DNA from: a virus
IMG/VR virus record: IMGVR_UViG_3300030419_005541
Span: 62,523-126,522 of that record
Direction: 5' to 3' (one strand)
Length of the DNA stretch: 64,000 bases
Made by a program: the position numbers and the translations under genes. Every line of letters begins with the position of its first letter. The stretch's first letter is position 1. Below the pieces are notes generated by a model. That model saw only the letters and a program-made list of their open reading frames with translations, searched no databases and was not told the origin of the DNA. This document shows positions 4,442 through 60,212 of the stretch, in pieces.

Positions 4442-4450
4442 AGACCTCGT

Positions 4451-4666: not shown

Positions 4667-4680
4667 CTTTATGGTAAATT

Positions 4681-5445: not shown

Positions 5446-5490
5446 TTTAGGTAATACTTATTATTGTAATAACGTTATATACACACTCTC

Positions 5491-5523
5491 TAAAGGTTTC
5501 ATTTAAATCTAATAGAACCTTTA
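5491..5523. repeat. Inverted repeat (TAAAGGTT/AACCTTTA) in an AT-rich intergenic region
   Basis: The arms at 5491-5498 and 5516-5523 are exact reverse complements. Confidence 0.5.
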
Positions 5524-5610
5524 TGGATACTGATTAAAACGTTACACTTAGCAATTAACTAATATAACTTAATAACTAATAGCTTAAATAAACTAAAACT
5601 AATATAGTAT

Positions 5611-5940: not shown

Positions 5941-5941
5941 T

Positions 5942-39965: not shown

Positions 39966-40422
39966 TACGAGCGATTACTTACGAACTAATCAAATAGGAA
40001 ACATAGAAGACTTAGAGTTTACTAATGCAGATGGCGGACCTACTTTATATATTTTAAGAGGTAGTGGTGAACCATCAAGTTCAGCAGATAGTAAAGCACT
40101 TGTAAATTATGGATATGTTGTTGGTAACTTTGTAACAAGACAACAATATTTTGCAGGCAACGCATCTTCATCTTTAAAAGCAGGGTCTCCTGTTTATAGA
40201 GTTACTTTATCAGCTACAGGTTCACAACAAGTTAATTCTAATACTTTAGAAGTATATTTAAATGGTATTAGTTTAAGAAAAAATGAAATAGCAAATCAAC
40301 ACTCTTCAGACTATTTCTTATCAGGTTCTAATAATGTAGTTTTATATAAACCAACAGGTTCATATGGTTATTCTATAAAAAATGATGATAAAATTAAAAT
40401 TAAATTTCAACAAGGATTCTAA
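39958..40422 (+). CDS. Structural protein (neck/fibre-associated)
   Basis: 'EVYLNG....DY....D.I.I.F' beta domain. Confidence 0.45.
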   Translation: MADTSDYLRTNQIGNIEDLEFTNADGGPTLYILRGSGEPSSSADSKALVNYGYVVGNFVTRQQYFAGNASSSLKAGSPVYRVTLSATGSQQVNSNTLEVYLNGISLRKNEIANQHSSDYFLSGSNNVVLYKPTGSYGYSIKNDDKIKIKFQQGF

Positions 40423-40925
40423 TGGCAAGCGCAACTGACAAAAGAAGAATTTTAGTAAATGCTGTTGTTTCATTGAAAGATGAAAGCAATAAAGCATCAG
40501 ACCTTGGATTTAGACATACACTTACAAGAAAAAGAAAACCATATAAACTAAATCTTAAAGATACATTATCTAATAGAAATGAAGATTTGTTATCTCACGG
40601 ACATATAAAAAGATATATAGAAGAAAAAACAATTTGTTTAAACAAACGTAAAATAGCAGTAGATTCTACAAAACAAACTTTTCAGTTAGATGTTCCTACA
40701 GGATATAAAACGGTTACCGGAAGTGTATCTTTTAAAGTGAACGGAGTAGAACAACATAGTACAGATAATCAAGCAACAGCGATGACATCAAGTATTGATT
40801 ATTTCATCGGTGACTCACCAAATTATGAATTTGTTTATTTATATAAACCTCGACAAGACCATAGTGGTTTGTTGGTAGATAATCGAGACTCCTTAATAAT
40901 TAATTATAGAGTGGAGAAAGCATAG
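40422..40925 (+). CDS. Structural protein, related to 39958..40422
   Basis: 'VNGVEQ...DYF...LYKP...D.LIINY' pattern, similar to the upstream gene. Confidence 0.45.
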   Translation: MASATDKRRILVNAVVSLKDESNKASDLGFRHTLTRKRKPYKLNLKDTLSNRNEDLLSHGHIKRYIEEKTICLNKRKIAVDSTKQTFQLDVPTGYKTVTGSVSFKVNGVEQHSTDNQATAMTSSIDYFIGDSPNYEFVYLYKPRQDHSGLLVDNRDSLIINYRVEKA

Positions 40926-44731: not shown

Positions 44732-44743
44732 TGGAGAGTATGA

Positions 44744-45466
44744 ATGGCAACAACAGCAGGTGATATTTATGTAAGAAGTGGAGCATCAGGTTCATTTACC
44801 GGAGCAGAATATGTTCAGGGTGGATGGATAACCGTAGCATCACAATCCAATATGAATTCCATCTATCACGATAGGATATCTGATGGTCAAGTAGCTTACG
44901 TAAGAAGTTCAAATAGAGTTTACATAGCAACAAAATTTGTAGCATTTCAGACACCTGGCTATGGCGGAACTTCAGATTCAGCATCTTGGACTGATTTAGT
45001 TTGGCCATCCGCAAGTTTTGCTTCTAACGGTGGCGGAGGAGGTGGTATAACTATCTCTAATAATGCTAATAATAGAGTTTTAACGGGTGATGGTTCTAAT
45101 GCAGTAGCAGAAACAAAATTAACATTTGATGGTACAACACTAACTTTAGGTGCGGCAACAACTGCTTCTTTTAAGAGATTAGATGCTGAAGTTATAAGTT
45201 CAAGTCTTGTACAAGTAGATGCTTCAACTTTACAAATAGGTGGTACATCAATAAATAAAACGTTGGTTGACAACGTAAAATTAAGTTTTAGTTCTACAGA
45301 AGTACAAACATCTGAAAATGTAACTACAGAAGCGGCAACAGGTTCGTTTTCAGGTTATGTTACATCATCATTATTTTTATTATCATCAGTACAAGGAGCA
45401 CCGCCAACAGCTAAAGCAGGTGGAATGATGTTTAGTGGTAGTGCTTTTTACTTAGGATTCGAATAA
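44744..45466 (+). CDS. Fibre-like structural protein
   Basis: Poly-G hinge, then 'NNRVLT...AE..LTFDGTTL', which is shared with the next gene. Confidence 0.55.
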   Translation: MATTAGDIYVRSGASGSFTGAEYVQGGWITVASQSNMNSIYHDRISDGQVAYVRSSNRVYIATKFVAFQTPGYGGTSDSASWTDLVWPSASFASNGGGGGGITISNNANNRVLTGDGSNAVAETKLTFDGTTLTLGAATTASFKRLDAEVISSSLVQVDASTLQIGGTSINKTLVDNVKLSFSSTEVQTSENVTTEAATGSFSGYVTSSLFLLSSVQGAPPTAKAGGMMFSGSAFYLGFE

Positions 45467-45493
45467 GAATGAAAGAATTTTTTAAGCATTTCA

Positions 45494-45501
45494 TATTTAT
45501 A
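45494..45501 (+). promoter_or_regulatory. TATTTATA late-promoter-like motif
   Basis: Intergenic, before 45549. Confidence 0.55.
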
Positions 45502-45548
45502 GATATGAATATTCATAGTAACAATAACCTTAATTAAGGAGAATAATA

Positions 45549-47324
45549 ATGGCAAGTTGGAAAAAAGTAATCGTCTCAGGCTCGAAAGCTGTCCTTGCCG
45601 AAGTGACAGCATCAGCGGGCTTTTCAGGAGATGGTTCAGGATTAACAGGTATTACAGCTACGTCTGTAAATATCGATGGTCTTGATGCGTTAGGTGGAAC
45701 AGGACTCCATCAAACACAAGACCACTTTATGTTTTCCGATAACGGAACAGAAAAGAAAATAACATTTAGTAATATGCAAGATGCAATTTTTGCTGATGTA
45801 AGTGGAGACGTAGCAATCGCCGCAGGTGGTGCCGCTACGATACAAGCTGATTCAGTTGAAAACTCTATGTTAGCAAATATAACACGAGGTAGTGTTAAAG
45901 TTGGTGGGGCAGCAAATGCACCTACAGATTTAGACGCTAAGACAAGTGGACAAATACTTGTTGGTGATGGAACTGATATTGTTTCAGTAGCAGTTAGTGG
46001 TGATGCTACATTATCAAGTGCAGGTGCTTTAACAATCGCCGCAGATTCTGTTTCTAACTCAATGTTAGAAAATATGACACGTGGTACGGTCAAAGTTGGT
46101 GGTGGTTCAAATGCTCCAACTGACTTAGATGCTAAAACAGATGGTCAAATTTTAGTCGGTGACGGAACAGACATTGCTTCAGTAGCAGTTAGTGGTGATG
46201 TAACATTATCTAATACAGGTGCTGTGACAATCGCTGCAAACGCAGTTGAAGGTTCAATGTTAAATTCAAACGTCGCAGGTACAGGACTTGACTATGGTTC
46301 AGACGAATTATCAGTAGACGTTTCAGACTTTATGACAAACGGTTCTAATAATAGAATCGTGACTGCAACAGGTACAGATGGAATGAACGGTGAAGCTAAT
46401 CTTACATTTGACGGAACTATTTTAAGCATTACAGGTAATGTAACTGCTTCTGCAGGTTTTACAGGTTCATTTGTAGGTGATGGTTCAGGACTGACAGGTG
46501 TAACAGGTACCGTTGACGTTGATTCGTTATCCGCATTAGGTGGTGCTTCTCTTCATCAAACACAAGACCATTTCTTAGTTTCTGATAATGGTACTGAAAA
46601 GAAAGTTACTTTTAGTAATTTAGAAGATAGTATCTTTGCAAACGTAAGTGGTGACGCAACCGTAGCCGCAGGTGGTGCTTTAACAATCGCCGCAGATTCT
46701 GTACAAGGAACTATGTTAAATGATGATGTTGCTGATGATTCAACTATTGAAGTATCAAGTAATAATCTTTCTGTATTGAAAGTTCCAAATGCGTTAACAG
46801 CAGGAGATGGTATTTCTGCGGGTGGTACTTTTGATGGTGCTACAGCAAGAACATTTGCTGTTGATTTATCAGGTTTATCTACCGTATCAATCGGTGCAGG
46901 TACATCTGAAGTAACCGTTAATGATAATCTTACCGTAACAGGTGATTTGACCGTTAATGGTGATAGAACTATCGTATCTACAACTAATTTGGTAGTAGAA
47001 GATAAATTCATCACACTTGCAAGTGGTTCAAGTGCCGCTACAGATGGTGGTATTGTTGTTCAAACTGCAGCAGCAGGTACAGGTGCCGCGCTTGTTTGGG
47101 ACACAGGTGTTGATAGATGGGCAGTAGCAGGTGAATCAACATTGAGTGGAGGTGCAGTTAGCGTTGATGCGTCTGTCGCCGCTTATGATTACATCGTAGG
47201 TGTTTCAGGTTCAACACTTAATCCAAACTTGGCAAGTGGTACGCCAACATTAGGTGCATCAAATCATAGATATGGTCAAATGCACGTTAACACTACAAGT
47301 GGTGATATTTTTATTTACTCTTAA
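45549..47324 (+). CDS. Fibre protein with internal duplications
   Basis: Starts MASWKKVIVSGS. Repeats are 'VSGD.T...G.(L/V)TIAA..V...ML', 'LHQTQDHF..SDNGTEKK.TFSN' (x2) and 'APTDLDAKT.GQILVGDGTD' (x2). Confidence 0.65.
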   Translation: MASWKKVIVSGSKAVLAEVTASAGFSGDGSGLTGITATSVNIDGLDALGGTGLHQTQDHFMFSDNGTEKKITFSNMQDAIFADVSGDVAIAAGGAATIQADSVENSMLANITRGSVKVGGAANAPTDLDAKTSGQILVGDGTDIVSVAVSGDATLSSAGALTIAADSVSNSMLENMTRGTVKVGGGSNAPTDLDAKTDGQILVGDGTDIASVAVSGDVTLSNTGAVTIAANAVEGSMLNSNVAGTGLDYGSDELSVDVSDFMTNGSNNRIVTATGTDGMNGEANLTFDGTILSITGNVTASAGFTGSFVGDGSGLTGVTGTVDVDSLSALGGASLHQTQDHFLVSDNGTEKKVTFSNLEDSIFANVSGDATVAAGGALTIAADSVQGTMLNDDVADDSTIEVSSNNLSVLKVPNALTAGDGISAGGTFDGATARTFAVDLSGLSTVSIGAGTSEVTVNDNLTVTGDLTVNGDRTIVSTTNLVVEDKFITLASGSSAATDGGIVVQTAAAGTGAALVWDTGVDRWAVAGESTLSGGAVSVDASVAAYDYIVGVSGSTLNPNLASGTPTLGASNHRYGQMHVNTTSGDIFIYS

Positions 47325-47353
47325 TCTTAAATGACAAGGTGAAAAGGTTTTTT

Positions 47354-47581
47354 ATGGGTTTAGTAGATAAAATGAACGCGAAAAGTGTTAAAAAAAGTGT
47401 GAAAAAAACACAACCTAAAAAAGATGCTTCAGGACTTAGCCTGAGGCATCTTGAATGGTTGTTAAAAACAATAAGAGATGCTGAACATTTAAAAGGTTCA
47501 GAATTACAAATTGCAACTGAAACGGTGCAATGGTTACAAAACGAATATATGAGGTTACAAAATGAAATTGGAAGTAAATGA
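47354..47581 (+). CDS. Small hypothetical protein (possible fibre assembly helper)
   Basis: Short helical ORF. The start is uncertain (47339 GTG or 47354 ATG). Confidence 0.45.
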   Translation: MGLVDKMNAKSVKKSVKKTQPKKDASGLSLRHLEWLLKTIRDAEHLKGSELQIATETVQWLQNEYMRLQNEIGSK

Positions 47582-47747
47582 GTTGGCGTTTATAAAAGAT
47601 TGTATTTATAATACGGCAATACAAGGTAAAGATTCTATTTTTGTAGGAGATTTATTAAGAAAAATTTTGAAAGAAAACGATAGACTTATAGCAATACAAA
47701 AGAAAAAAGAAGCGGAGATGCAAGAAGTCTATATTAAAGAAAAGTAG
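47562..47747 (+). CDS. Small hypothetical protein
   Basis: 61 aa with GAGG SD. The 'L...EL.F....I....I.G' pattern is similar to the upstream small ORF. Confidence 0.45.
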   Translation: MKLEVNELAFIKDCIYNTAIQGKDSIFVGDLLRKILKENDRLIAIQKKKEAEMQEVYIKEK

Positions 47748-47800
47748 TCTATATCGGCCCGAAAGGGAAGTGGGCTCAGAAGAGTAACCAACCATATAGG
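47748..47800 (+). ncRNA. Candidate structured cis-regulatory RNA (three-way junction)
   Basis: Closing stem CTATAT.GG/CC.ATATAG, hairpin CCC-GAAA-GGG, and TGG-GCTC-AGAA-GAGT-AA-CCA. It is a GC-rich island overlapping the SD of 47812. Confidence 0.45.
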
Positions 47801-47811
47801 AGAAGTAGTAA

Positions 47812-48450
47812 ATGCCAAGTTGGAAAAAATTAGTCACGAGCGGTAGTGACGCTTCAATACCAAGTGTATCACCTTCAGGTGATTTTACTATCGATGCAGG
47901 TTCAAATATCAATCTTGATGCTGATGGTGCAGTTATAAAATTAAAAGATGATGGAACAGAATTTGGTAGATTAAGTAGAGTTTCTTCTGATTTAGTTATA
48001 AAATCCGCAGGTAATAATAATGATATTATATTCAAAGGTGTTGATGCTTCATCAACCATAACTGCACTTACTTTAGATATGTCTGAAGGCGGAAATGCTA
48101 ATTTTGAAGGTTATGTAAGTGGTTCAGCATTGGTAGGTATACAAACTGCCGCTTCAATGACAGGTGCAAACAACGTAGATTTATCAACATCTGCAAATCA
48201 TAATATTACAATAACAGGGAATATCACTTTAACTCCAACAAACTTCGCAGGAAGAAAAGGACAAAGTGGTATTATAACATTAATTCAAGATAGTTCAGGT
48301 GGTCATTCAATAACATTAAATTCATTGTTTAAAACGCCTAGGGGAGATTCCATAAGCTTTGATACATCTGCTGATGGCGTATCACTAATGTCTTATTACG
48401 TGATAGACGCAACAAGAGTAGCAGTTAATTACTTAGGTCCATTCTCGTAA
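47812..48450 (+). CDS. Short fibre/adaptor protein
   Basis: Starts MPSWKKLVTSGS (like 45549). The C-terminal 'GQSGIITLIQDSSGGHSITL' beta-domain is of a kind seen at fibre tips. Confidence 0.55.
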   Translation: MPSWKKLVTSGSDASIPSVSPSGDFTIDAGSNINLDADGAVIKLKDDGTEFGRLSRVSSDLVIKSAGNNNDIIFKGVDASSTITALTLDMSEGGNANFEGYVSGSALVGIQTAASMTGANNVDLSTSANHNITITGNITLTPTNFAGRKGQSGIITLIQDSSGGHSITLNSLFKTPRGDSISFDTSADGVSLMSYYVIDATRVAVNYLGPFS

Positions 48451-48467: not shown

Positions 48468-51400
48468 ATGGTCGGTGGATTCGGATTTTTAGACGAATTA
48501 AAATTCAATACTGAATTTAATACTACTAAAAGTACAAGTACTTCTAAGAACACCACCTTAGCCACTTCTACATCAAAAGCTACTGCTACTTCAAAAAGTA
48601 CAATTACTACTTTTAATACTACAAAAGAAACTACTACAACTTATAATACTACCAAGTCAACTATAACGACTTTTGATACAACTCTAAGTACTGCTACTTC
48701 AAAATCAACGTCAACTTCAAAAAGTACGTCTACAACTTTTAACACTACGTTAGAAACTATTACTGCCTACAACACTACGTTAGAAACTATTACTACCTAC
48801 AACACTACGTTAGAAACTATTACAACTTACGAAACAACTAAGAGTACTATAGAATCAAGAGCAACTGCTACTTCGAAAGCAACTATTACGACTTTTAATA
48901 CCACGTTAGAAACTATTGAATCTCGTGCTACTTCTACATCGAAAAGTACGATTACAACTTTTGAAACGACTTTAGAAACTATCACGACATATAATACTAC
49001 TCTGAGTACGATAGAAACACGGGCGACATCCACCTCAAAGTCCACCATAACTACTTTTAATACTACGTTAGAAACAATTACAACTTATGAAACTACTCTG
49101 AGTACTATTGAACAGCGGTCCACGGGTACTTCTAAGTCAACTATAACTACTTTTAATACTACGTTAACAACTATCACAACTTTTGAAACTACGTTAAGTA
49201 CGATAGAAACACGGGCGACATCCACCTCAAAAAGTACGATTACAACTTATGAAACTACTCTGAGTACCATTGAACAACGAGCCACCTCTACTTCAAAAAG
49301 TACTATTACCACGTATAATACAACATTAGCAACTATAACAACTTATGAAACTACTCTGAGTACTATTGAATCTCGGGCTACTTCGACCTCAAAAAGTACG
49401 ATTACAACTTATGAAACTACATTAGAAACTATTGAAACTCGTGCTACTTCGACTTCAAAAAGTACAATTACTACTTTTGAAACTACATTGGCAACTATTA
49501 CTACCTATGAGACTACTCTGAGTACGATAGAATCAAGAGCAACCTCTACTTCAAAAACTACGATTACAACTTTTATTACTTCGAAGAGTACTATCACAAC
49601 TTATAATACTATTACAACTTATAGTACGATAACGACTTATAATACTACCTTAGCAACTATTACAACTTACAATACTATAAAAGAAACCACCACAACTTTT
49701 GATACAATTACAACATATTCTACAATTACAACTTATGAAACTTCTAAGTCAACAATTACGACCTATAATACTATTACAACTTATAGTACGATAACGACTT
49801 ATAATACTACAAAAAGTACGACAACAACTTTTAGTACTATTACAACTTATAGTACAATTACAACGTATAATACCACTTTAGCAACTATTACAACTTACGA
49901 AACTTCTGTAAGTACTATTGAATCGAGGTCCACAGGTACATCAAAATCTACGATTACTACTTACAACACTACATTGGCAACTATTACAACCTATGAGACT
50001 TCTAAAAGCACAATAGAAACAAGGGCAACGTCTACTTCGAAATCAACTACTACAACTTATAATACTATAAAAGAAACTACTACGACTTTTAGTACTATTA
50101 CAACTTATAGTACAATTACAACGTATAATACCACTTTAGCAACTATTACAACGTATGAAACGACTAAGAGTACTATTGAGCAGAGGTCTACTTCTACTTC
50201 AAGAGCTACGATTACAACTTTTATTACTTCGAAGGCAACTATTACGACTTATAATACTACCCTAAGTACCATTGAGCAGAGGTCTACTTCTACTTCAAGA
50301 GCTACTATTACAACTTTTAATACTACTAAGAGCACCACAACTACTTATAATACTATTACTACTAAAGCAACTATAACTACTTTTGAAACTTCTAAAAGTA
50401 CAATAGAAACAAGAGCTACTTCTACATCGAAAAGCACGAGTACAACTTATGAAACCACATTAAGTACAATAGAAACGAGGTCTACAGGTACATCAAAAAG
50501 TACTACAACGATTTATTCTACCGCGACTACAAAAGAAACTACTACAACTTATAATACTACGAAAAGTACGACTACTGCGTATGCTACTTCTACTACAAAA
50601 GAAACTACTACAACTTATAATACTACGGCAAGTACGACTACCGCATATGCTACTTCTACTACAAAAGAAACCACTACAACATTTGGTACAATTACGGTTT
50701 ATAGTACAATTACAACGTTTAATACAACATTGGCAACTATTACAACGTATAATACAACGTTGGCAACTATTACAACTTATAATACTATTACCACAAAGAG
50801 TACAATTACAAGTTATAATACTATTACTTCGAAAACTACGATTACAACTTTTAATACTTCTAAAAGCACAATAGAAACAAGAAGTACGATTACATCGAAA
50901 ACTACAAGTACAACTTATAATACTACTTTAGCAACTATTACAACTTATAATACTTCTAAAAGTACAATAGAAACAAGAAGTACGATTACAACTTTTATTA
51001 CTTCAAAAAATACAATTACAGAGTTTTCACAAATTACTATTTTTTCTACGATTACAACAAGAATTACAACGAGAGAAACAGATACGGTTTATGAAACATC
51101 TAAGTCAACTACCACGACTTATATAACTTCAAAATCGACTACAAGAAGCACTCTTGAAGTAAAAAGTACAACTACAACTTATAATACTACGAAAAGTACG
51201 ATTACATCATATCTTTCAAGTTTTAATACGATTACTTCGAAGAATACTACTACCACAAGGAGTACAGCTACTTCAAAAAATACAACTACTATTTATGCTA
51301 CGATTACAACGTTTAATACCAATACTTCAAAAACCACGGTTTTCAATACTACTAAAAATACCGTAAACGCAACTATTTATGGAACGTATAGAAATACTAC

Positions 51401-54400
51401 TACGATTTTCAACACAATTAAATCTACAACGTATAAAACATATTTCTTTACCTTTGACCCAAGGTCAGGTGGTGAGATAACAAGTAGAAATACCAGCAGA
51501 AATACAACTAAATCTACTTCGAGAACTACATCTACTTTACTTGCAATTACAATGAGGATTACAACTTTTATCACTACGAAAAGTACCTCAAGAACTACAA
51601 CTTATAGTACCGCAACTACTCGAAGCACCATTGAATCAAGAAATACGAGTACAACTTTTGGTACTATTACAAGTTTTGATGTAATTACTATTTTTGCTAC
51701 GATTACCGCAAAGAATACTTCTCGTGAAACGGATACGGTTTATAATACCACCAAGTCAACTATTACAAGTTATAATACCATTACCACGTATATTACAAGT
51801 TATAATACAAGTAAAACAACTATTACAACTTATAATACCACCAAGTCAACTATTACAAGTTATTTGACTGCTTTTAATACAATTACTTCTAAAAGCACTA
51901 TAACATCGAGGTCTACAGCAACTTCGTATAATACTACTTTGAGTACGATTACTACGTATTCTACTACTACCACGTATAATACTACTTTGAGTACAATTAC
52001 AACTTATAATACTTCAAAAGATACAACTACTATTTATGCTACGATTACAACTTATAGTACGATAACGACCTATAATACTATAAAAGAAACAACCACGACT
52101 TATTCTACTATTACCACGAAGAGTACAATTACTGCGTATGCTACTATTACTACAAAAGAAACAATAACGACTTATAACACCACCAAGGAAACAATTACAA
52201 CATATAATACTACTCTGAGTACTATTGAACAGCGGTCAACATCTACCTCGAGGATAACTATAACAACGTATAATACTATTACTTCAAAAAGTACAATTAC
52301 AACTTATAATACAAGTAAAACAACTATTACAACGTATAATACTATTACTTCAAAAAGTACAATAACTACGTATAATACTACTTTAACAACTATTACAACT
52401 TATAATACGATTACTTCGAAGAGTACGATTACCTCGTATAATACTATTACAACGTATTCTACCATAACTACCTATAATACTTCTAAGAATACGATTACAA
52501 CTTATAATACTATTACAACGTATTCTACTATAACTACCTATAATACTACTTTAGAAACAATTACTGCGTATGCTACTATTACTACAAAAGCTACAATAAC
52601 TACATATAATACCACGTTAGAAACTATTACGACTTTTAGTACCACTACAACTTATAGTACAATAACGACCTATAATACTACAAAAGAAACTATTACAAGT
52701 TATAATACTACATTAGAAACTATTACGACTTTTAGTACCACTACAACTTATAGTACGATAACTACTTACAACACTACGTTGGAAACTATTACGACTTATA
52801 ATACTACCCTAAGTACTATTGAACAAAGAGCAACTTCTACTTCGAAAACTACGATTACGACTTTTAATACTTCTAAGTCAACTATAACAACGTATAATAC
52901 AATTACAACGTATAGTACAATTACGACCTATAATACCACGTTAGAAACTATTACAACTTATAATACTACTAAGTCAACTATTACAAGTTATAATACTATT
53001 ACGGTTTATTCTACTATAACTACTTTTAATACCACGTTAGAAACAATTACAACCTACGAAACTACGTTAAGCACTATTGAGCAGAGGTCAACAAGTACAT
53101 CTAAAAATACGATTACAACTTTTAATACTACCTTGAGTACTATTGAGACAAGGGCAACTTCTACTTCAAAAAGTACAACTACTACGTATAATACAACACT
53201 AAGTACTATTGAACAAAGAGCAACCTCTACTTCAAAAACTACTATAACTACTTTTAATACCACGTTAGAAACAATTACAACTTATGAAACTACATTAAGT
53301 ACTATTGAGACCAGGTCTACAAGTACTTCAAAGAGTACAATTACAAGTTATAATACTATAAAAGAAACTATCACGACTTATAATACTATAACGACTTACA
53401 GCACAATTACGACCTATAATACCACGTTAGAAACTATTACAACTTATAATACGACCTTAAGTACAATTACAACTTTTGATACAATTACAACTTATGCGAC
53501 TATAACAACCTATAATACTACTAAGTCAACAATTACAACTTACAACACGATTACAACTTATAGTACGATAACTACTTACAACACTACGTTGGAAACTATT
53601 ACAACTTACGAAACGACTAAGAGTACTACAACTACTTATGATACAATTACAGCATATTCAACTATAACAACGTATAATACTACCAAGTCAACTATTACGA
53701 CTTACAACACGATTACAACTTATAGTACAATTACAACGTATAATACTATAAAAGAAACTACCACAACTTATAATACTACAAAGAGTACGATTACAAGTTA
53801 TAATACTATAACGACTTATAGTACAATTACAACTTATAATACAACATTGGCAACCATTACAACGTACAATACTACTAAGTCAACAATTACGACCTATAAT
53901 ACTATTACAACTTATAGTACAATTACAACGTATGAAACGACTTTGGCAACTATTACGACTTATAATACTACGAAGTCAACTACTACGACTTTTGATACAA
54001 TTACAGCTTATGCAACTATAACGACTTATGAAACTACGTTAGAGACTATTACGACTTATAATACTATAACGACTTATAGTACAATTACAACGTATAATAC
54101 CACTTTAGCAACTATTACAACGTATGAAACGACTTTGGCAACTATTACAACGTATGAAACGACTTTGGCAACTATTACAACTTTTGAAACTTCTAAGTCA
54201 ACTATAACTACTTTTAATACTACTACGGTATATAATACAATAACAACTTACAATACCACTAAGTCAACTATTACAACCTATGAAACGACTTTGGCAACTA
54301 TTACGACTTATGAAACTACAAAGAGTACTATTACGACTTATAATACTATAACTACTTTTGATACAATTACAGAATATACTACCGTATATGATACGATAAC

Positions 54401-54440
54401 AACTTTTACCACAACTCGAATAACAAGTTATTACTTCTGA
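48468..54440 (+). CDS. 1990-aa Thr-rich self-complementary repeat protein (predicted giant beta-hairpin filament)
   Basis: Uninterrupted ORF with AGGAG SD, built from 4- and 6-residue units. The single Pro (DPRSGG, aa 997-1002) lies at the symmetry centre. Confidence 0.85.
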   Translation: MVGGFGFLDELKFNTEFNTTKSTSTSKNTTLATSTSKATATSKSTITTFNTTKETTTTYNTTKSTITTFDTTLSTATSKSTSTSKSTSTTFNTTLETITAYNTTLETITTYNTTLETITTYETTKSTIESRATATSKATITTFNTTLETIESRATSTSKSTITTFETTLETITTYNTTLSTIETRATSTSKSTITTFNTTLETITTYETTLSTIEQRSTGTSKSTITTFNTTLTTITTFETTLSTIETRATSTSKSTITTYETTLSTIEQRATSTSKSTITTYNTTLATITTYETTLSTIESRATSTSKSTITTYETTLETIETRATSTSKSTITTFETTLATITTYETTLSTIESRATSTSKTTITTFITSKSTITTYNTITTYSTITTYNTTLATITTYNTIKETTTTFDTITTYSTITTYETSKSTITTYNTITTYSTITTYNTTKSTTTTFSTITTYSTITTYNTTLATITTYETSVSTIESRSTGTSKSTITTYNTTLATITTYETSKSTIETRATSTSKSTTTTYNTIKETTTTFSTITTYSTITTYNTTLATITTYETTKSTIEQRSTSTSRATITTFITSKATITTYNTTLSTIEQRSTSTSRATITTFNTTKSTTTTYNTITTKATITTFETSKSTIETRATSTSKSTSTTYETTLSTIETRSTGTSKSTTTIYSTATTKETTTTYNTTKSTTTAYATSTTKETTTTYNTTASTTTAYATSTTKETTTTFGTITVYSTITTFNTTLATITTYNTTLATITTYNTITTKSTITSYNTITSKTTITTFNTSKSTIETRSTITSKTTSTTYNTTLATITTYNTSKSTIETRSTITTFITSKNTITEFSQITIFSTITTRITTRETDTVYETSKSTTTTYITSKSTTRSTLEVKSTTTTYNTTKSTITSYLSSFNTITSKNTTTTRSTATSKNTTTIYATITTFNTNTSKTTVFNTTKNTVNATIYGTYRNTTTIFNTIKSTTYKTYFFTFDPRSGGEITSRNTSRNTTKSTSRTTSTLLAITMRITTFITTKSTSRTTTYSTATTRSTIESRNTSTTFGTITSFDVITIFATITAKNTSRETDTVYNTTKSTITSYNTITTYITSYNTSKTTITTYNTTKSTITSYLTAFNTITSKSTITSRSTATSYNTTLSTITTYSTTTTYNTTLSTITTYNTSKDTTTIYATITTYSTITTYNTIKETTTTYSTITTKSTITAYATITTKETITTYNTTKETITTYNTTLSTIEQRSTSTSRITITTYNTITSKSTITTYNTSKTTITTYNTITSKSTITTYNTTLTTITTYNTITSKSTITSYNTITTYSTITTYNTSKNTITTYNTITTYSTITTYNTTLETITAYATITTKATITTYNTTLETITTFSTTTTYSTITTYNTTKETITSYNTTLETITTFSTTTTYSTITTYNTTLETITTYNTTLSTIEQRATSTSKTTITTFNTSKSTITTYNTITTYSTITTYNTTLETITTYNTTKSTITSYNTITVYSTITTFNTTLETITTYETTLSTIEQRSTSTSKNTITTFNTTLSTIETRATSTSKSTTTTYNTTLSTIEQRATSTSKTTITTFNTTLETITTYETTLSTIETRSTSTSKSTITSYNTIKETITTYNTITTYSTITTYNTTLETITTYNTTLSTITTFDTITTYATITTYNTTKSTITTYNTITTYSTITTYNTTLETITTYETTKSTTTTYDTITAYSTITTYNTTKSTITTYNTITTYSTITTYNTIKETTTTYNTTKSTITSYNTITTYSTITTYNTTLATITTYNTTKSTITTYNTITTYSTITTYETTLATITTYNTTKSTTTTFDTITAYATITTYETTLETITTYNTITTYSTITTYNTTLATITTYETTLATITTYETTLATITTFETSKSTITTFNTTTVYNTITTYNTTKSTITTYETTLATITTYETTKSTITTYNTITTFDTITEYTTVYDTITTFTTTRITSYYF

Positions 54441-54514: not shown

Positions 54515-55486
54515 ATGGCTAAAATGCAAAACGAAATGTTTGACCCTAATAATATGGAGGAACGCATTGGCGAGTATGAAAAGAATAAATATTTGGTTGA
54601 CAATCTCGCAGGTGTAGATAAATTCTTCAGAAAACGTATGAGAAGATATACTACAGAATTTTCATATGATGTTATGGCAAACGAAATACCATATTTTAAA
54701 ACAATAAATTATACAGAATATGCTACATCATTTATGATGGTTCCTCTTAGTCAAATAATGAGAGAGCAACAAATTAAAGATGCTTACTATGATGAAGAAA
54801 ATGAAGAATATCCAATATTAGATTGGGTAACTTACTTTAGAGAAAATGTAGAAAATAAAGTATCTAACAAATATGAAGATAGAGTAGATTTTACTAAAGA
54901 CCCACAATATGATAGAGAACTTGAAGCATTAGTAATTTTACCAGGTTCTAATAAAATAAAAAGTAGGATTTGTTTAAATAAATTAAAGACTATAAAAGAT
55001 AGACACGGAGATAAAGTTTTATTTAAACCACATCCTATAACACAACATCAGATTATAGGTGAGTTAAAAGACTTGTTTGGTGAATCTTGTATATTACCAC
55101 GTGAAGCAGACTTATATGCTTTTATGTTGAAGGTTCCTAAAATCTATACAACTAATATTAGTGAATCTTGTTTGTATGCAGTTTGTTTAGAAAAACAACT
55201 TGACCATATTGAAGTACATCAAGATATGGCTTGGGGTTCTTTCTATCATATGAGTTGGCCTATTTATCAATCTGAAGTACGTGGACAAGATACACATTAT
55301 TGGATTAACAAAGTTCTTTCAAGTCCTAAATGTGGAATAGTAAATCCTAAAGTAGACTTAAATTGGAAGAAAAAACTTAGTGATTATTTAACTTACATAC
55401 ACAAAGAGAGGGAGTTATGGTACGAAGTTTTTGTACGTGATGACCCTATTACAAAACCTGAAGAATTTAAAAAGAAGAAATCTTAG
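54515..55486 (+). CDS. KpsS/KpsC-like (beta-Kdo transferase-type, GT-B) protein
   Basis: 'LVILPG', 'VLFKPHP' and 'IYTTNISESCLYA' resemble the K.HP and T.NS..G.EA motifs of KpsS/KpsC. It is adjacent to kdsA. Confidence 0.45.
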   Translation: MAKMQNEMFDPNNMEERIGEYEKNKYLVDNLAGVDKFFRKRMRRYTTEFSYDVMANEIPYFKTINYTEYATSFMMVPLSQIMREQQIKDAYYDEENEEYPILDWVTYFRENVENKVSNKYEDRVDFTKDPQYDRELEALVILPGSNKIKSRICLNKLKTIKDRHGDKVLFKPHPITQHQIIGELKDLFGESCILPREADLYAFMLKVPKIYTTNISESCLYAVCLEKQLDHIEVHQDMAWGSFYHMSWPIYQSEVRGQDTHYWINKVLSSPKCGIVNPKVDLNWKKKLSDYLTYIHKERELWYEVFVRDDPITKPEEFKKKKS

Positions 55487-55495
55487 GAGTTTCAA

Positions 55496-56914
55496 ATGAA
55501 AGAAATTTCAGTTTCAAATATAACATTTGGTGGTGAAGATACACCTCTAATAGCAGGACCTTGTGTTGTTGAGACATACAAACTTGCTACTGATGTTGCA
55601 AAACAACTTGTGAAGATAGGAGAAAAAACAAACACTCCTATAATTTATAAAAGTTCTTTTGATAAAGCAAATCGTTCTTCTAATTCATCTTACAGAGGAC
55701 CTGGAATAGAAAAAGGATTAGAAGCACTTAGACGAGTAAAAGATGAAACAGGATTACCTGTTCTTACTGATATACACGAAGTTCATCACGTAAATGAAGT
55801 AGCAGAAGTTGCTGATATATTACAAATACCTGCTTTTTTATGTAGACAAACAGACTTGATAAAAGCCGCAGCACAAACCGGTAAAGTAGTAAATGTAAAA
55901 AAAGGTCAATTTTTGTCACCTTGGGAAATAGAAAATGTAATAATAAAAATTACAGAAGAAGGTAATGAGAATATTTTGATTACAGAACGTGGAACACAAT
56001 TTGGATATCAGAATCTTGTTGTTGATATGAGGTCAATTCCTATTATGCAACAATTCGGATTTCCTGTTATCTTTGATGCTACGCATAGCAATCAACTTCC
56101 TGGCGGAAACGGAACATCTACAGCAGGTATGAGAGATATGGTGCCTTATTTAGCTAAAGCGGCGGTGGCAGTTGGATGTGATGGATTGTTTTTCGAAACA
56201 CATCCTGACCCTAAAAATGCTAAATCTGATGCGTCAACACAATGGCCTTTAGATGAGTTAGAAGAAGTTATTTCAAATCTAAAAATGAAACCAGCTAAGG
56301 TAGTCGATTCCGCTCCTAGTCGAAATTTAAGAGAAAGTCAAGCAAAAACTTACATAAAATCATTAAAAGAAAAAAGTTTAAAACATAGAACTATAGATTT
56401 TAATGATATGGAAGAAAAAGAAGAAAAATCCGTAAGTAATAAAAAACCTTCACCTAATTCATTTGAAAGCACCGTTGTTCATTTGATGAATGAACGTGAA
56501 TTGACCGAGAGAATAAATATTGATTCTGAAAGTGAATATGCTAAATTAGATTTAGATAAAAAATACCAAACCGTTGTTTCAGATAAATATCTTGATACTT
56601 TAAATCCATTAGAAGTAGATGAAGTATTAGTTCAAATATTTAATATAGCAGAACGTTTAATAGTTTTACATCTTGAACCAGCAAGAAGACCTGTACAATG
56701 GTGGATGGATAAGTTTCAGTTTTTAAGAGAAAGACACGACCAAGAAGAACTAAACATATTTGTAGTTTTTGATGCTAAACCTAATGAACTTAAAATGATT
56801 ACGTTGCCTAACGACTATCATCAAAAGAAAAAACAACAAGAAGAGAGACTAAAAGGAAAGCGCGTTCCATTTGTTTCGTGGAGAGATAATAATAAACCTA
56901 AACCAAGGATGTAA
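55496..56914 (+). CDS. kdsA: KDO-8-phosphate synthase with a ~200-aa C-terminal extension
   Basis: 'IAGPCVVE', 'KSSFDKANRSS', 'QIPAFLCRQTDL', 'NVKKGQF', 'ERG..FGY', 'FDATHS.Q.PG' and 'ETHPDP..A.SD'. Confidence 0.92.
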   Translation: MKEISVSNITFGGEDTPLIAGPCVVETYKLATDVAKQLVKIGEKTNTPIIYKSSFDKANRSSNSSYRGPGIEKGLEALRRVKDETGLPVLTDIHEVHHVNEVAEVADILQIPAFLCRQTDLIKAAAQTGKVVNVKKGQFLSPWEIENVIIKITEEGNENILITERGTQFGYQNLVVDMRSIPIMQQFGFPVIFDATHSNQLPGGNGTSTAGMRDMVPYLAKAAVAVGCDGLFFETHPDPKNAKSDASTQWPLDELEEVISNLKMKPAKVVDSAPSRNLRESQAKTYIKSLKEKSLKHRTIDFNDMEEKEEKSVSNKKPSPNSFESTVVHLMNERELTERINIDSESEYAKLDLDKKYQTVVSDKYLDTLNPLEVDEVLVQIFNIAERLIVLHLEPARRPVQWWMDKFQFLRERHDQEELNIFVVFDAKPNELKMITLPNDYHQKKKQQEERLKGKRVPFVSWRDNNKPKPRM

Positions 56915-56915
56915 T

Positions 56916-57260
56916 ATGCACACAGCAGGAAAAGTATGGGGCAAAACAGCTAATATATTTTCTAATCCTAACTTTGAAGTACATAGGATTGAAGTAAATA
57001 AAGGCGGATTCTGTTCTAAACATAAACACAAATATAAATTCAATGCTTTTTATGTAGAAAGTGGTGAATTAGAAATTATAATTTATAAAAATGACTACGA
57101 TTTAGTAGATACTACGGTTCTTAAAGCAGGTGATATGACGATTGCTAAACCAGGTGAATATCATAGTTTTAAAGCAAATGCAAAAACAATTTGTTATGAA
57201 CTTTATTGGGTAGAATTAAATCACAACGATATTGAAAGAGAATCTGTAGGCGGTATTTAG
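56916..57260 (+). CDS. Cupin-fold protein (sugar isomerase-like)
   Basis: ATG at 56916; motifs 'KVWG', 'CSKHKH..K...FYVESG.L' and 'PGEYHSF'. Confidence 0.7.
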   Translation: MHTAGKVWGKTANIFSNPNFEVHRIEVNKGGFCSKHKHKYKFNAFYVESGELEIIIYKNDYDLVDTTVLKAGDMTIAKPGEYHSFKANAKTICYELYWVELNHNDIERESVGGI

Positions 57261-58069
57261 TGTTATCAGTTCCTATTCAAAATCTTGTAAAAGATAAAAG
57301 AGTTATCATTGTAGGTAATTCTGTAGAAATGATGAAACACGAATATGGTGATTTTATTGATTCTTTTGATATTGTTGTTCATTTAGGTGCGGCTATCACA
57401 AGAGGTAAAAAATTTTACAAACATCTTGGAAGTAGAACTGACATATGGGCTACCGGTACATTCAGATTTGATTGTTATTGGGATTGTGAAGAGGATTTTA
57501 TCAGTGGTAGATATAAAGATACTATGGTATTATTTAATAGAGCAAGAACTAAATTATTAAACGTAGATGCTATAGCTCATTTTGAAAATCAATTACCACA
57601 AATACCAAGAAAAGATATGTTTTGTGATGTAGAACTTATAAACTTGTTAGATGAATTTAACTATTTAGATGGATTTGGTGATGGATACAGAGGACCTAAA
57701 AACGGAATGAGACCATCAGGCGGATTTATAACTATTTTATATTTTATTAGAAAAGTACAAACTTATAAAAGTTTAGATATAATAGGTTTTGATTTTTTTA
57801 GAAAAACAACGGATGTTTATAGAAAAAAACCAAACGATGAAACAAAAGGAGCTGTGCCATTTAGTTGGTATATGCCTATGAGGTCTGCAACAACAGGTAG
57901 CCATCCACATAATAAAACATTAGAATTTGATTATGTTAAAAAATTAGAAAAAGAAAACAAAATAAATTGGAATGTACTAACTGATTTAAAAGATAAAGTA
58001 GTAAAGTACGATGGATGGTTAGAAGGGTCTGAACAATGGAATAGAGGTATCACAAAAAGTGATTCTTGA
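57260..58069 (+). CDS. GT29 (sialyltransferase-like) glycosyltransferase
   Basis: Sialylmotif-L-like 'VIIVGNS......G.FIDSFDIVV......GSRT', S-like 'PSGGFITI...IIGFDFF' and VS-like 'HNKTLE'. Confidence 0.7.
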   Translation: MLSVPIQNLVKDKRVIIVGNSVEMMKHEYGDFIDSFDIVVHLGAAITRGKKFYKHLGSRTDIWATGTFRFDCYWDCEEDFISGRYKDTMVLFNRARTKLLNVDAIAHFENQLPQIPRKDMFCDVELINLLDEFNYLDGFGDGYRGPKNGMRPSGGFITILYFIRKVQTYKSLDIIGFDFFRKTTDVYRKKPNDETKGAVPFSWYMPMRSATTGSHPHNKTLEFDYVKKLEKENKINWNVLTDLKDKVVKYDGWLEGSEQWNRGITKSDS

Positions 58070-58970
58070 CAATAAACACAGCTTTCTTCAATATAGAAAA
58101 GACCAAGAGAAGAAACATTTAAAATTAATTAAAAATACTACTAATCCTTTACATAGTATTCTAACGGTTGAAATGAATCTTACAGAATTATGTAATAGAA
58201 AATGTGTTTTTTGTCCACGACACGACCCTAAAGTATATCCTAACAGAAACTTGAACACAACTATTGAAGACGCAACTACTATAGCAAAACGTTTAGCAGA
58301 TTTTGATTACTTTGGTAGAATATCATTTAGTGGATTTGGAGAAAACTTTTTAAATAAACAATTTAACGAAATTGTACACGCTATGAGAAAAGAATTACCT
58401 ACTAATGTATTTGAATGTAACACAAATGGTGATTTTTTAAACAAAAAAACCGTTACAGAAATATACGAAAATGGTATGGATATGTTGTACATAAATTTAT
58501 ACGATGGTCTTGAACAAATAGACCCTTTTGTAAAGATAATGAAAGAAGCAGGTATACCTGAAGAAAATTATAAATTACGAGCGCATCATACACAAGACGA
58601 ATGGGGATTATTTGTAAATAATAGAAGCGGTCTTATAGATTGGATAGGGTTTGATGAGGATGATATTGAAAATTTAAAAGGCACAAAATGTCACTATCCG
58701 TATTACAAAATGTTTGTGGATTGGAATGGTGATGTATTGTTCTGTTCTAATGATTGGGGTAGAGAAATAGTAATTGGTAATCTAATTGAAAGTTCTGTTA
58801 TGGATGTTTGGATGGGTGAAGAGATGAAAAAAGTTCGTGATAGACTTTCAGTAGGAGATAGAAGTCACAGCCCGTGTAATACGTGTTCAGTAAAAGGTGA
58901 CTTATTTGGAGAACCAAGTTTTAACTTAATTAATGAGTATTATGAGAGTAGCGATAACAGGTCACACTAA
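58059..58970 (+). CDS. Radical SAM protein with SPASM/twitch domain
   Basis: 'CNRKCVFC', 'FSGFGE', 'NTNG' and C-terminal 'C..P....VDWNGDV..C..D...C..C'. Confidence 0.85.
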   Translation: MILDNKHSFLQYRKDQEKKHLKLIKNTTNPLHSILTVEMNLTELCNRKCVFCPRHDPKVYPNRNLNTTIEDATTIAKRLADFDYFGRISFSGFGENFLNKQFNEIVHAMRKELPTNVFECNTNGDFLNKKTVTEIYENGMDMLYINLYDGLEQIDPFVKIMKEAGIPEENYKLRAHHTQDEWGLFVNNRSGLIDWIGFDEDDIENLKGTKCHYPYYKMFVDWNGDVLFCSNDWGREIVIGNLIESSVMDVWMGEEMKKVRDRLSVGDRSHSPCNTCSVKGDLFGEPSFNLINEYYESSDNRSH

Positions 58971-59508
58971 CGGATTAGGTAAAGAATTATATAATCGTCT
59001 TTACGATATGTATCCTTTTGAAGTTCATGGATTTTCTCGTACAAACGATTATGATGTTTCCGACAATTATGAAAGAGCAAAGATAATTTTAAAGATAGAA
59101 GAATGTGATTTGTTTATTAATAATGCACATCCATTGTTTGACCAAACACGTATGTTAATGGAAGTGTTTGATAAGTGGAAATATGAAGATAAAACTATTG
59201 TTAATATAATTAGTAGAGCAAAGTATGACAATATATCTAAAGGATTTATGTATTCTGCTTCTAAAGCATCATTATCACATCTTTCACATAATTTAAGATT
59301 TAACACAGATAAAAAATGTAAGATAATTGATGTAAATCCAGGACTACTTGAATCAGCCTTATCAAGTTTAACTTATAAAGAGATGGCAGATATTGTTATG
59401 TGGTGTATTAATCAACCAAAACATATTGAAATAGGTGAAATATCTGCTTGGCATAGAGATTCATATGTTGAGGTACAAAAAGAAAAAGCAAAACTCTTTA
59501 AAAAATGA
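58942..59508 (+). CDS. Short-chain dehydrogenase/reductase
   Basis: 'VAITGHTNGLG', 'FINNA' and 'YSASK'. The start is 58942 or 58933. Confidence 0.8.
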   Translation: MRVAITGHTNGLGKELYNRLYDMYPFEVHGFSRTNDYDVSDNYERAKIILKIEECDLFINNAHPLFDQTRMLMEVFDKWKYEDKTIVNIISRAKYDNISKGFMYSASKASLSHLSHNLRFNTDKKCKIIDVNPGLLESALSSLTYKEMADIVMWCINQPKHIEIGEISAWHRDSYVEVQKEKAKLFKK

Positions 59509-60212
59509 ACATTTATATAGGTTATGATAGTAGACAAGATTATTCTGAAGATTTTGCAGATGTTGTAAATCCACCATATCAAGTATCGAAGTATTCAATA
59601 GAAAAATACAATAAAAGTGTTATTATAGAACCTATAATTATTTCAGAATTAAGAAGAAAACAGATATATTGGAGAGGAACTGACTATTTATCAAGTACTG
59701 AATTTGTTTATAGTAGATTTCTTACTCCTTATCTTAATGGATACAAAGGAATTGCATTATTTTGTGATTCAGATTTTTTATGGCAATCAGATGTAAATGA
59801 ATTATTAGATTATTATGATAGTAAGTATTCTGTTATGTGTGTAAAACATAATTATACACCACCGGAAAGTACAAAGATGGATGGAAAAGCACAAACACAT
59901 TATCCAAGAAAAAATTGGTCAAGTCTTATGTTGTTTAATTGTTCTCATCCTGATATTAAAAAATTAAATGTTAAAAATATTAACACAAAAGACGCAAAAT
60001 GGTTGCATAGATTTGAATGGACAAGTGATGAGTGTGTAGGAGAGATACCAGCAACTTTCAATTGGTTAGAAGGTTGGTATAATGATAACGTAGACCCAAA
60101 AGCTATACATTATACACGTGGAGGTCCTTGGCATACGACTTGGAATGGTCACTATAAAGACAAATGGGTACAAACATATAACGAATTAGTTAAGGAGAAA
60201 TCAAATGGCTAA
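59505..60212 (+). CDS. GT-A glycosyltransferase (GT8-like)
   Basis: 'IYIGYD', 'STEF.YSRF..P', 'FCDSDFL' (DxD), 'YPRKNWSS.MLFN' and 'HYT.GGPW'. Confidence 0.8.
   Translation: MNIYIGYDSRQDYSEDFADVVNPPYQVSKYSIEKYNKSVIIEPIIISELRRKQIYWRGTDYLSSTEFVYSRFLTPYLNGYKGIALFCDSDFLWQSDVNELLDYYDSKYSVMCVKHNYTPPESTKMDGKAQTHYPRKNWSSLMLFNCSHPDIKKLNVKNINTKDAKWLHRFEWTSDECVGEIPATFNWLEGWYNDNVDPKAIHYTRGGPWHTTWNGHYKDKWVQTYNELVKEKSNG

Follow-up and report, generated by a model that had tools for sequence, protein, structure and literature searches.

The locus and its putative fibre gene

The stretch of DNA analysed here (the window) comprises 64,000 nucleotides and forms the last 64 kb of a 126.5-kb virus record, IMGVR_UViG_3300030419_005541. 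The subject of this report is one gene of the window, whose product, P0001, is a Thr-rich protein of 1990 amino acids (aa) with two halves that complement each other when one of them is read backward. Upstream of this gene are neck genes, for an Ad2/gp13-like adaptor and a gp15-like protein, and downstream is the gene for the tail sheath. In Flavobacterium phage immuto, the region from head completion to sheath contains genes annotated as tail fibre. The major head protein of the window is assigned to phrog_138 and is 52–54% identical to those of immuto and of Microcystis phage Mel-JY01.

P0001 is composed of 872 Thr (44%), 226 Ser, 201 Ile, 140 Tyr, 108 Asn, 91 Lys, 87 Glu, 60 Leu, 51 Phe and 42 Arg as its main residues, with a single Pro and no His, Cys or Trp. 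It can be divided into a short N-terminal overhang, an N arm, a tip with a turn and a C arm, the boundaries of which are collected in Table 1. The two arms strictly alternate between two faces, one of which is punctuated by residues that are either aromatic or Lys/Arg/Leu and are termed anchors below. The tip is rich in aromatic residues on its N side and in basic residues on its C side, and it is conserved in an alignment with the closest relative, L072.

A mirror code relates the two arms

For the axis scan the sequence was recoded, with Tyr, Phe and Trp as one class and Lys, Arg and Leu as the other, and every anti-diagonal was scored. At i + j = 2001, P0001 has 178 opposite-class pairs, 3 same-class pairs and 19 unpaired anchors, against 97, 19 and 141, respectively, at the runner-up axis of 2033. 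When the order of the units was shuffled 1000 times, the best axis averaged 35.8 pairs (standard deviation 2.8) and never exceeded 51; shuffling only the units of the C arm, again 1000 times, gave a maximum of 55. With the anchors held at their positions and their classes shuffled (1000 times), the mean was 90.9 (standard deviation 6.7) and the maximum 110. The 178 pairs were thus reached in none of the 3000 shuffles and, because neither type of shuffle approached this number, the spacing and the class of the anchors are each far above chance. A standout axis is absent from six other large open reading frames (ORFs) of the window, in each of which the best axis is about equal to the second best.

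A gapped complement alignment of the N half with the reversed C half introduced no gap at all and placed residues 11–962 against residues 1990–1039. This ungapped block holds 176 opposite-class pairs, one same-class pair and five anchors opposite a non-anchor. There are 952 paired positions in each arm, and about 76 residues at the turn (963–1038) have no register at nearby axes. Within the paired arms the anchors follow one another at a spacing of 6 (120 times) or 4 (53 times), in addition to eight odd spacings that arise from off-face extras.

A preliminary description, made from the letters of the DNA and their translation, had portrayed P0001 as its own reverse complement, with anchors every 4 or 6 residues, an axis at 1000.5 between S1000 and G1001 of the element DPRSGG that holds the only Pro, and some 176 consecutive pairs free of violations between residues 17 and 959. 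The spacing rule, the place of the axis and all nine of the example pairs that it quoted are correct. Its count comes within two of ours, 174 of 179 pairs in that range being of opposite class, but the run is not free of exceptions, five of which occur (V481:F1520, A721:Y1280, T868:L1133, L896:I1105 and L916:S1085). V481 and A721 are the one Val and the one Ala that had been rightly named as stand-ins. The arms had been put at about 990 residues; the long mirrored pairing stands, and the length has to be reduced to the 952 positions given above. Shuffling, which the preliminary description had called for, matched the real complementarity in 0 of 3000 trials.

The code involves both faces and holds at all 950 paired positions. 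The anchor face contains only Thr:Thr (269 pairs), Glu:Thr (25 pairs) and anchor pairs. Ser is kept off this face, with 277 Thr and 1 Ser in the N arm and 289 Thr and 0 Ser in the C arm; the counts on the other face are 135 Thr and 126 Ser. On that other face Ile is opposite Ile in 62 pairs, which is 6.3 times the expectation, and Thr is opposite Ser, Asn, Glu or Ala, Thr:Thr being rare. The anchor pairs are spread evenly over both alternate positions (86 and 89), and Leu is frequent as the partner of the aromatic residues (54 of 176 partner residues). Two residues ahead of Arg, on the same face, stands a Glu (TIExR). Besides the mirror there is a parallel periodicity of 32 residues with 192 same-class coincidences, the units being irregular mixtures of the 4 and 6 spacings.

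At the DNA level, only four short inverted repeats (16–26 nucleotides) are present in the fibre gene, none of them at mirrored places, and a palindrome in the DNA was rejected as the source of the mirror on this ground. Since the DNA is not palindromic, an inverted duplication is ruled out and the mirror must be maintained by selection at the protein level.

Single-chain relatives and compensatory evolution

Relatives of P0001 were gathered by means of neighbouring genes and the repeat motif, after searches of the HMMER and BLAST type had failed on its composition. Six further distinct single-chain relatives were obtained from viral loci in this way (Table 1), and four partial loci (L073, L081, L082 and L084), in which one arm is missing, were left out of the axis tests. 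All seven hairpin proteins, P0001 included, have a best axis that outscores the second by a wide margin (for example 259 versus 143), and in all seven it falls at a turn containing Gly and/or Pro, such as DPRS/GG, GNGP/GG, PFYN/PP, DPFR/GP and LARG/KW, where the slash marks the axis. The pairing is essentially ungapped over 861–1611 residues in six of the seven. The axis equals the protein length plus 11 in P0001, L072, L074, L079 and the outer block of L087, and the length plus 12 in L071, so that the N-terminal overhang of 10 residues is constant among the sequences with both ends known. The termini, M..G.FGF.[DE]ELKF... and ...SYY[FV], are conserved, and the arms and tips diverge between relatives.

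The L074 type was found in nine loci from nine contigs. Its sequence is identical in the six loci that span it fully, and the identity is at least 0.998 over the part present in the three partial ones. The order of its repeats is therefore reproducible.

L074 and L079 are 91% identical and are separated by six 12-residue indels, three in each arm. Each of the three N-arm indels has a C-arm partner of the same size and direction no more than 6 residues from the mirrored place. Between these two proteins 1610 of 1620 pairs map to pairs. Among the anchor pairs, 243 are retained and another 4 show a class swap on both sides; there are also 2 gains and 1 loss that affect both sides, and 4 cases in which one side has turned into a non-anchor. 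P0001 and L072, which are 67% identical, show a net difference of 102 residues in each arm. Among the relatives the Thr positions of the anchor face are 95–98% identical, and the anchors themselves are 45–88% identical with complementarity retained.

Three other studies yielded contigs with close variants of the fibre gene, which differ from it at 35 codons, 22 of them synonymously. The anchor changes among them, K955R and F994Y, both keep the class, and no pair is broken by any variant. One set of variant haplotypes is common to three studies.

The relatives also bear on what the preliminary description had proposed as further checks, namely that homologues should have mirrored arms and that length changes should be mirrored in both. 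Relatives of 1786–3418 aa do have mirrored arms with the axis at a Gly/Pro turn, and where close relatives differ by indels, these have mirrored counterparts that match in size, direction and place. Taken together with the shuffles, these data support a single fold-back in a fixed antiparallel register, which is the part of that description that stands apart from its length of ~990 paired residues. P0001 may be a lone two-stranded ribbon, as it had assumed, and a six-stranded trimeric bundle of the gp37 type would fit the sequence equally well.

Split two-gene form and a minimal member

In two loci, L140 and L124, the two arms are encoded by separate genes (Table 1). When arm 1 and arm 2 of L140 are compared in antiparallel orientation, the score is 406.7 with 101 opposite-class and no same-class pairs; the corresponding values for L124 are 250.4, 70 and 0. 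The controls scored 20.4 and 32.0 (parallel), 24.6 (cross-locus) and 70.0 and 32.3 (self). The split arms thus complement only each other, and this cognate pairing suggests specificity. Arm 1 terminates, in both loci, with a globular domain of about 100 aa that contains Cys, and arm 2 begins immediately beyond it. To judge from its sequences, the split form is a hairpin cut at the tip. Between the split arms lies a gene for a protein of 173–195 aa that resembles Rossmann methyltransferases or aminopropyltransferases; it is 49% identical between L140 and L124 and matches the Pfam family MTS at E 4.4e-5.

The smallest complete member, P0021, has 263 aa. About 67 of its N-terminal positions pair with about 67 C-terminal ones, the axis giving 14 opposite-class pairs versus 12 at the runner-up axes. 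Its middle is occupied by a globular insert (head) of about 120 aa that is rich in Cys and Trp, and its termini resemble those of P0001. The design would accordingly appear to range from a short stalk with a head, as in P0021, to arms of ~1600 pairs with a minimal cap.

Two other viral ORFs, in L123 and L125, contain 35–38% Thr in Pro-containing repeats, that of L125 with an N-terminal non-repeat domain. The mirror signal in them is weak (best versus second axis 27 versus 21 and 36 versus 25), and they may represent a different repeat class or a truncated member.

Occurrence and database searches

In a search of a protein collection with residues 1–1990 of P0001, not one of the 8000 scored candidates passed E<=0.001, probably because other Thr-rich proteins displaced the true relatives; the exact P0001 sequence is not in that collection. 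A whole-library HMMER search with residues 1–1200 gave 21 matches at E<=0.001. Five of them (P0008, P0010, P0019, P0020 and P0021) are relatives or fragments rich in Thr; the other 16 are unrelated repeats, 8 of the PPR-like kind and 8 simple repeats of other kinds. A pattern search with the N-terminal motif returned only two contigs that were already known. No match was obtained with the fibre protein in 50,697 phage records searched by tblastn under low-complexity filtering, or with window positions 40000–48400 by megablast against phages. P0001 matched no family in Pfam and none in PHROGs, and phmmer against the PDB yielded only a chance match (E 0.81, a designer PPR protein) and nothing resembling gp37. 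The ESM Atlas contains the P0001 sequence without a model, its best feature scores of 0.81–0.84 lying under the meaningful level, and P0021 found no usable match there. In a scan of representative bacterial genomes with the repeat motif, 111 loci were found, 0 of which hold a Thr-rich (>22%) ORF of at least 200 aa; by this motif the family therefore leaves no sign in these genomes. A mirror-coded or self-complementary Thr-rich phage fibre was not found described in the literature searched, a scope outside which most subscription journals lay. The preliminary description had named no described family of this kind, and this held across the Pfam, PHROGs, PDB, sequence and literature searches.

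DNA nearly identical to the fibre gene is present in 20 of 24 listed sequencing runs, from 8 studies dated 2014–2025 and from marine, seawater, estuary, freshwater and aquatic metagenomes. Among the 20 positive runs, 18 contain at least half of the sampled words of the gene. None of the runs listed as containing it is an RNA run. Coverage of the gene is complete (30 of 30 bins) in 4 of 4 runs, which come from 4 studies, with no indel listed. The public contigs that cover the gene are pieces of 200–490 bases, and the joints and loose ends in them can be put down to effects of repeats or relatives because the contigs are so short.

Neighbouring genes and sugar metabolism

The gene adjoining the fibre gene on its upstream side encodes the 212-aa protein of Table 1. 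The C-terminal domain of this protein (approximately residues 89–212) is found directly upstream of the fibre gene or genes in the hairpin relatives and in the split locus L140, with an identity by tblastn of 64–69% in the hairpin loci and of 36% (E 7.5e-12) at positions 5277–5603 of L140. Its N-terminal ~100 aa are common to 70 viral loci, some of them on contigs of ~146–147 kb. Since the C-terminal domain accompanies the fibre genes, it may act as an adaptor, seemingly a modular one, or as an assembly factor.

Table 1. Features of the window and of related loci, with positions or, for the single-chain relatives, protein lengths.
Feature	Position or length	Strand	Basis or remark
Fibre gene, product P0001 (1990 aa, Thr-rich, mirror-coded)	48468..54440	+	Stop codon included; ORF list and translation
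P0001 residues 1-10 (MVGGFGFLDE), unpaired N-terminal overhang at the putative base	48468..48497	+	Motif kept in relatives
P0001 N arm, putative outgoing strand, residues 11-962	48498..51353	+	Single ungapped paired block; strict two-residue face alternation
P0001 tip or cap, residues 963-1038	51354..51581	+	Without register; no axis from 1990 to 2012 yields >4 pairs
P0001 turn D997-P998-R999-S1000-G1001-G1002	51456..51473	+	Sole Pro; axis 1000.5 between S1000 and G1001
P0001 C arm, putative returning strand, residues 1039-1990	51582..54437	+	Ends in conserved ...RITSYYF
212-aa protein adjoining the fibre gene upstream	47812..48450	+	Matches to tail-fibre PHROGs
323-aa protein, predicted retaining beta-Kdo transferase fold (KpsC/WbbB/KrkA)	54515..55486	+	AF2 model and structure searches
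Sugar/modification cluster, in the gap from fibre cassette to sheath	55496..60212	+	Pfam, NCBIfam; order kept in relatives
Radical SAM-SPASM gene	58059-58970		89-94% identical across relatives; among the best-conserved cluster genes
L140 split fibre locus	301-5645	-	Arm 1 768 aa, arm 2 696 aa
L124 split fibre locus	343-6086	+	Arm 1 689 aa, arm 2 595 aa
L072 (identical to L086)	1786 aa		Closest relative of P0001
L087	3298 aa		Hairpin relative
L074 type	3309 aa		Nine loci from nine contigs
L079	3333 aa		Hairpin relative
L085	~3354 aa		Length estimated from axis
L071 (overlaps L127)	3418 aa		Hairpin relative

On the downstream side, the 323-aa protein matches nothing in Pfam, NCBIfam or PDB sequence searches, and no Kdo-transferase (3-deoxy-D-manno-oct-2-ulosonic acid transferase) family was among the hits. 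Its AlphaFold2 (AF2) model has a predicted local distance difference test score (pLDDT) of 79.4 and a predicted template modelling score (pTM) of 0.80. With this model, ranks 1–18 listed by Foldseek are all Kdo transferases (best E 4.2e-5, TM <=0.43), and so are the top 13 entries in VIA, with Z values of 9.0–10.4 over 206–229 aligned residues. The generic GT-B folds follow in VIA at Z <=8.9, a small margin below. The motifs of retaining beta-Kdo transferases for catalysis and for binding of cytidine monophosphate comprise a His-Pro motif and an Asp nucleophile. The 323-aa protein has a His173-Pro174 pair that does not vary among 8 of 8 aligned homologues. A homologue lies directly after the fibre gene or genes in both hairpin and split loci (in L124 with 46% identity, E 2.5e-81), and one with 41% identity over 81 residues is present in L140. 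It is conceivable, though we hold it only tentatively, that this KpsC-like protein glycosylates the fibre.

The sugar/modification cluster that follows contains genes for a KdsA-like protein (DAHP_synth_1, E 1.6e-70), a cupin, a GT29-like glycosyltransferase, a radical SAM-SPASM protein, a short-chain dehydrogenase/reductase and a weakly matching GT8-like protein. This cluster may be linked to the fibre. The radical SAM-SPASM protein falls under every NCBIfam cut-off, its weak matches including peptide maturases such as WgkB (E 4e-9, 35.9 bits versus a cut-off of 650), and its substrate could be sugars or the fibre protein. Further upstream, after the neck genes, a 1268-aa ORF (40925–44731) contains a cadherin domain (Pfam E 3.6e-9) and may encode another surface or fibre protein.

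Proposed architecture and alternative explanations

We consider P0001 to be, most probably, a fold-back, register-coded antiparallel beta fibre or stalk of a large, distantly T4-like myovirus of marine or brackish water. The chain would run out for about 950 residues as an uninterrupted beta-type strand with strict two-residue alternation, be capped by the ~76-residue tip around the single Pro/Gly turn, and return antiparallel, in such a way that residue i would end up beside residue 2001-i. The register would be written on both faces, on one by Thr opposite Thr and Tyr/Phe opposite Lys/Arg/Leu, and on the other by Ile opposite Ile and Thr opposite Ser, Asn, Glu or Ala. The irregular order of the 4 and 6 spacings would penalise a slipped register, because even the best of the wrong axes loses about half of the pairs. 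The cross-strand contacts between aromatic residues and Lys or Arg may be of the cation-pi type. Both termini would meet at the base, the probable point of attachment to the virion. The turn end would be distal; it varies between lineages and is a globular head in the small and split relatives, as might be expected of a receptor-binding end. Evolution would tune the length through paired, mirrored indels of whole units.

The beta conformation, the physical pairing, the location on the virion and the role as a long appendage reaching for the host are what we infer from the code and the gene order. The preliminary description had put the length at about 330 nm, from its ~990 residues. By simple arithmetic, 952 pairs at ~3.3 Å would measure ~0.31 μm (~315 nm) if fully extended, and the 1611 pairs reached among the relatives would measure ~0.53 μm.

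Several points weigh against this architecture. P0001 is a predicted product, and its place on the virion is putative. No precedent is known for a lone two-stranded ribbon of 950 pairs, which would be of doubtful stability. Over long distances the order of the units in the assembly of the window itself is provisional, since the public contigs are short. The code is looser in the relatives than in P0001, 33–71 of their anchors being opposite a non-anchor, mostly Thr. In the C arm of L087 (approximately residues 2886–2990) there are 76 extra residues that are not mirrored and that divide the protein between two registers, 3315 and 3239; this insertion is either a tolerated bulge or a misassembly. 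With an alignment of four sequences, three of them nearly identical, AF2 saw no fold in residues 801–1200 of P0001 (mean pLDDT 24.8, pTM 0.13), a result that is uninformative in either direction. A complex prediction for residues 301–420 with 1581–1700 scored 0.00 in a run without controls and is counted neither way.

How the folded-back chains are packed is a separate matter, and here we lean slightly towards several hairpins or faces packed together, because one face is Thr-only, excludes Ser and is nearly invariant. The most concrete version of this is a trimer resembling the gp37 needle, in which three folded-back chains would form a six-stranded antiparallel tube with the Thr/anchor face as its core, each layer consisting of three aromatic and three Lys/Arg/Leu side chains or of six Thr. 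We regard it as a serious possibility, if one somewhat short of an even chance; it would refine the fold-back fibre proposed above and competes only with the lone two-stranded ribbon. A face of Thr without Ser, 95–98% conserved, is what would be expected of a packed face, the opposite-class rule would balance the volume in a narrow core, and the Glu that precedes Arg in TIExR could neutralise a buried charge. On the other hand, the burial of many Lys would be unfavourable, zero His means no metal sites of the gp37 type, and in sequence P0001 resembles neither gp37 nor any PDB chain. Membership of the gp37 family itself was rejected, given zero His and no sequence similarity.

At the other extreme, P0001 might be a single-molecule, two-stranded duplex that carries its register in the residue-pairing code and evolves like an RNA stem, through compensatory swaps and mirrored indels, and whose all-Thr face is decorated with Kdo-type sugars by the KpsC-like transferase, giving a programmable, length-tunable glycoprotein tentacle with a larger capture radius in dilute water; we think this rather unlikely.

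That the chain does not fold back at all, and that two extended chains pair antiparallel as a homodimeric duplex like a palindromic nucleic acid, is improbable. Self-complementarity at i + j = 2001 would be satisfied equally by such a dimer, and the split arms show that pairing of separate chains is possible. Nevertheless, the axis falls exactly at a Gly/Pro turn in an irregular cap in 7 of 7 relatives, the split relatives are cut at the tip, with the head of arm 1 adjoining the start of arm 2, and a globular head occupies the axis of P0021. Moreover, conservation extends to both termini at once, which fits a common base at which they would meet.

Even less probable is it that P0001 is a disordered, mucin-like glycosylated polymer, or a local beta-solenoid with units of 10–32 residues, in which the mirror would be a by-product of repeat evolution. 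The 44% Thr, the adjoining glycosyltransferase and Kdo genes, the strong parallel periodicity of 32 residues and the failure of AF2 to see a fold speak for such a protein. Against it stand the presence of only one Pro in the whole protein and an alternation that keeps strictly to a period of 2 through 950 residues of each arm, and neither disorder nor a solenoid predicts pairing at a constant i + j, mirrored 12-residue indels, compensatory swaps or split arms that complement only their cognates. As the DNA is non-palindromic, no duplication mechanism would yield the mirror as a by-product. Two more specific candidates were rejected: a Pro-rich disordered mucin or Pro/Thr/Ser (PTS) domain, because of the single Pro, the two-residue alternation and the long-range mirror order, and a coiled coil of the SMC/Rad50 type, because of 44% Thr, beta-branched residues, anchors at even spacings only and a period of 2 without heptads.

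Finally, it is scarcely credible that faulty assembly of a repeat region produced the long ORF, for although the source is metagenomic, the DNA highly repetitive and the public contigs short, misassembly would scramble a mirror order rather than create it, 30 bins are covered in 4 of 4 runs without a listed indel, 20 of 24 listed runs contain the stretch or part of it, and the L074-type sequence is identical in six full-span loci and at least 0.998 identical in three partial ones.

If the fold-back fibre is true, it would be a mode of protein fibre construction that we have not found described in the libraries and databases searched, in which a strand pairs with its own complement over ~1000 residues, in a register that is spelled out at each position and kept by compensatory evolution, as in the stems of nucleic acids. 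It would also define a new class of phage appendage, ranging from ~67 pairs plus a head (263 aa) to ~1600 pairs (3418 aa) and occurring in single-chain and two-gene forms. The design may help to explain the long thin filaments of marine phages, and it suggests that reach is tuned by means of matched units. For protein designers it would offer a natural heterospecific beta-zipper code. The adjacent gene with the Kdo-transferase fold raises the possibility of Kdo glycosylation of a phage structural protein.

Comparison with known systems

The T4 gp37 needle is held together by His-x-His iron sites, whereas P0001 has no His among its 1990 residues and its register would instead be set by the aromatic:Lys/Arg/Leu, Thr:Thr and Ile:Ile code. 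In the account of Bartual et al. (2010) relayed in PMC9659904, the gp37 needle is a six-stranded trimer whose fold-back part lies within the last 215 residues. According to the same account, each chain of the fibre travels to the tip and returns, so that its beta strands are antiparallel and the turn forms the receptor-binding end, all of which P0001 would share; it differs in extent, with 952 pairs in P0001 and up to 1611 in its relatives. An out-and-back chain of this type is indicated in our sequences by an axis at the turn in 7 of 7. The gene context, that of a T4-like phage fibre, is also similar. Of the published analogues that we could document, the gp37 needle is the closest, with only the topology in common.

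The head filament of Caulobacter phage phiCbK, for which gp76 (2799 aa) is the candidate, is flexible and ~200 nm long (PMC3556154). As described there, gp76 and P0001 would have in common a giant gene in the structural module and a long filament for the first contact with the host, the filament of P0001 being our own conjecture. In contrast to P0001, gp76 belongs to a siphovirus, is rich in Gly, Ala and Pro and carries a lectin domain, and the passages of PMC3556154 that deal with it report no mirror organisation and treat its identity as the filament itself as unproven. Beta-solenoids and antifreeze proteins of the TxT type consist of coils of constant length that are stacked in parallel and need no matched halves. 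P0001 has a parallel periodicity of 32 residues, but its units mix the 4 and 6 spacings irregularly, and mirrored indels and the complementarity of split arms are not predicted by a solenoid.

Long fold-back arms are familiar from other proteins. The arms of SMC/Rad50-type proteins are intramolecular antiparallel alpha-helical coiled coils with heptads. As proposed here for P0001, their halves pair antiparallel over hundreds of residues, with arm lengths that have to stay matched in evolution and with functional ends at the base and the apex. P0001, by contrast, is 44% Thr with a period of 2 and is encoded in a viral structural module, not a chromosome ATPase. In the ~50-nm stalk of streptococcal antigen I/II, with its Ala- and Pro-rich repeats, the helix of the A region pairs with the polyproline helix of the P region. 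The two designs would resemble each other in a long fold-back stalk built of two unlike but complementary repeat arrays of one chain, with a head at the tip and the termini at the base. Antigen I/II, however, is a bacterial adhesin with pairing of an alpha helix and a polyproline II helix and without a residue-by-residue code.

Designed beta-hairpin peptides, tryptophan zippers among them, use cross-strand pairs of an aromatic residue with Lys or Arg within 12–20 residues. P0001 resembles them in placing aromatic residues opposite cationic or aliphatic ones across what would be antiparallel strands and in its use of Thr as a strand former. It differs in that a natural protein contains ~175 such pairs, whose irregular spacing would serve as the code for the register.

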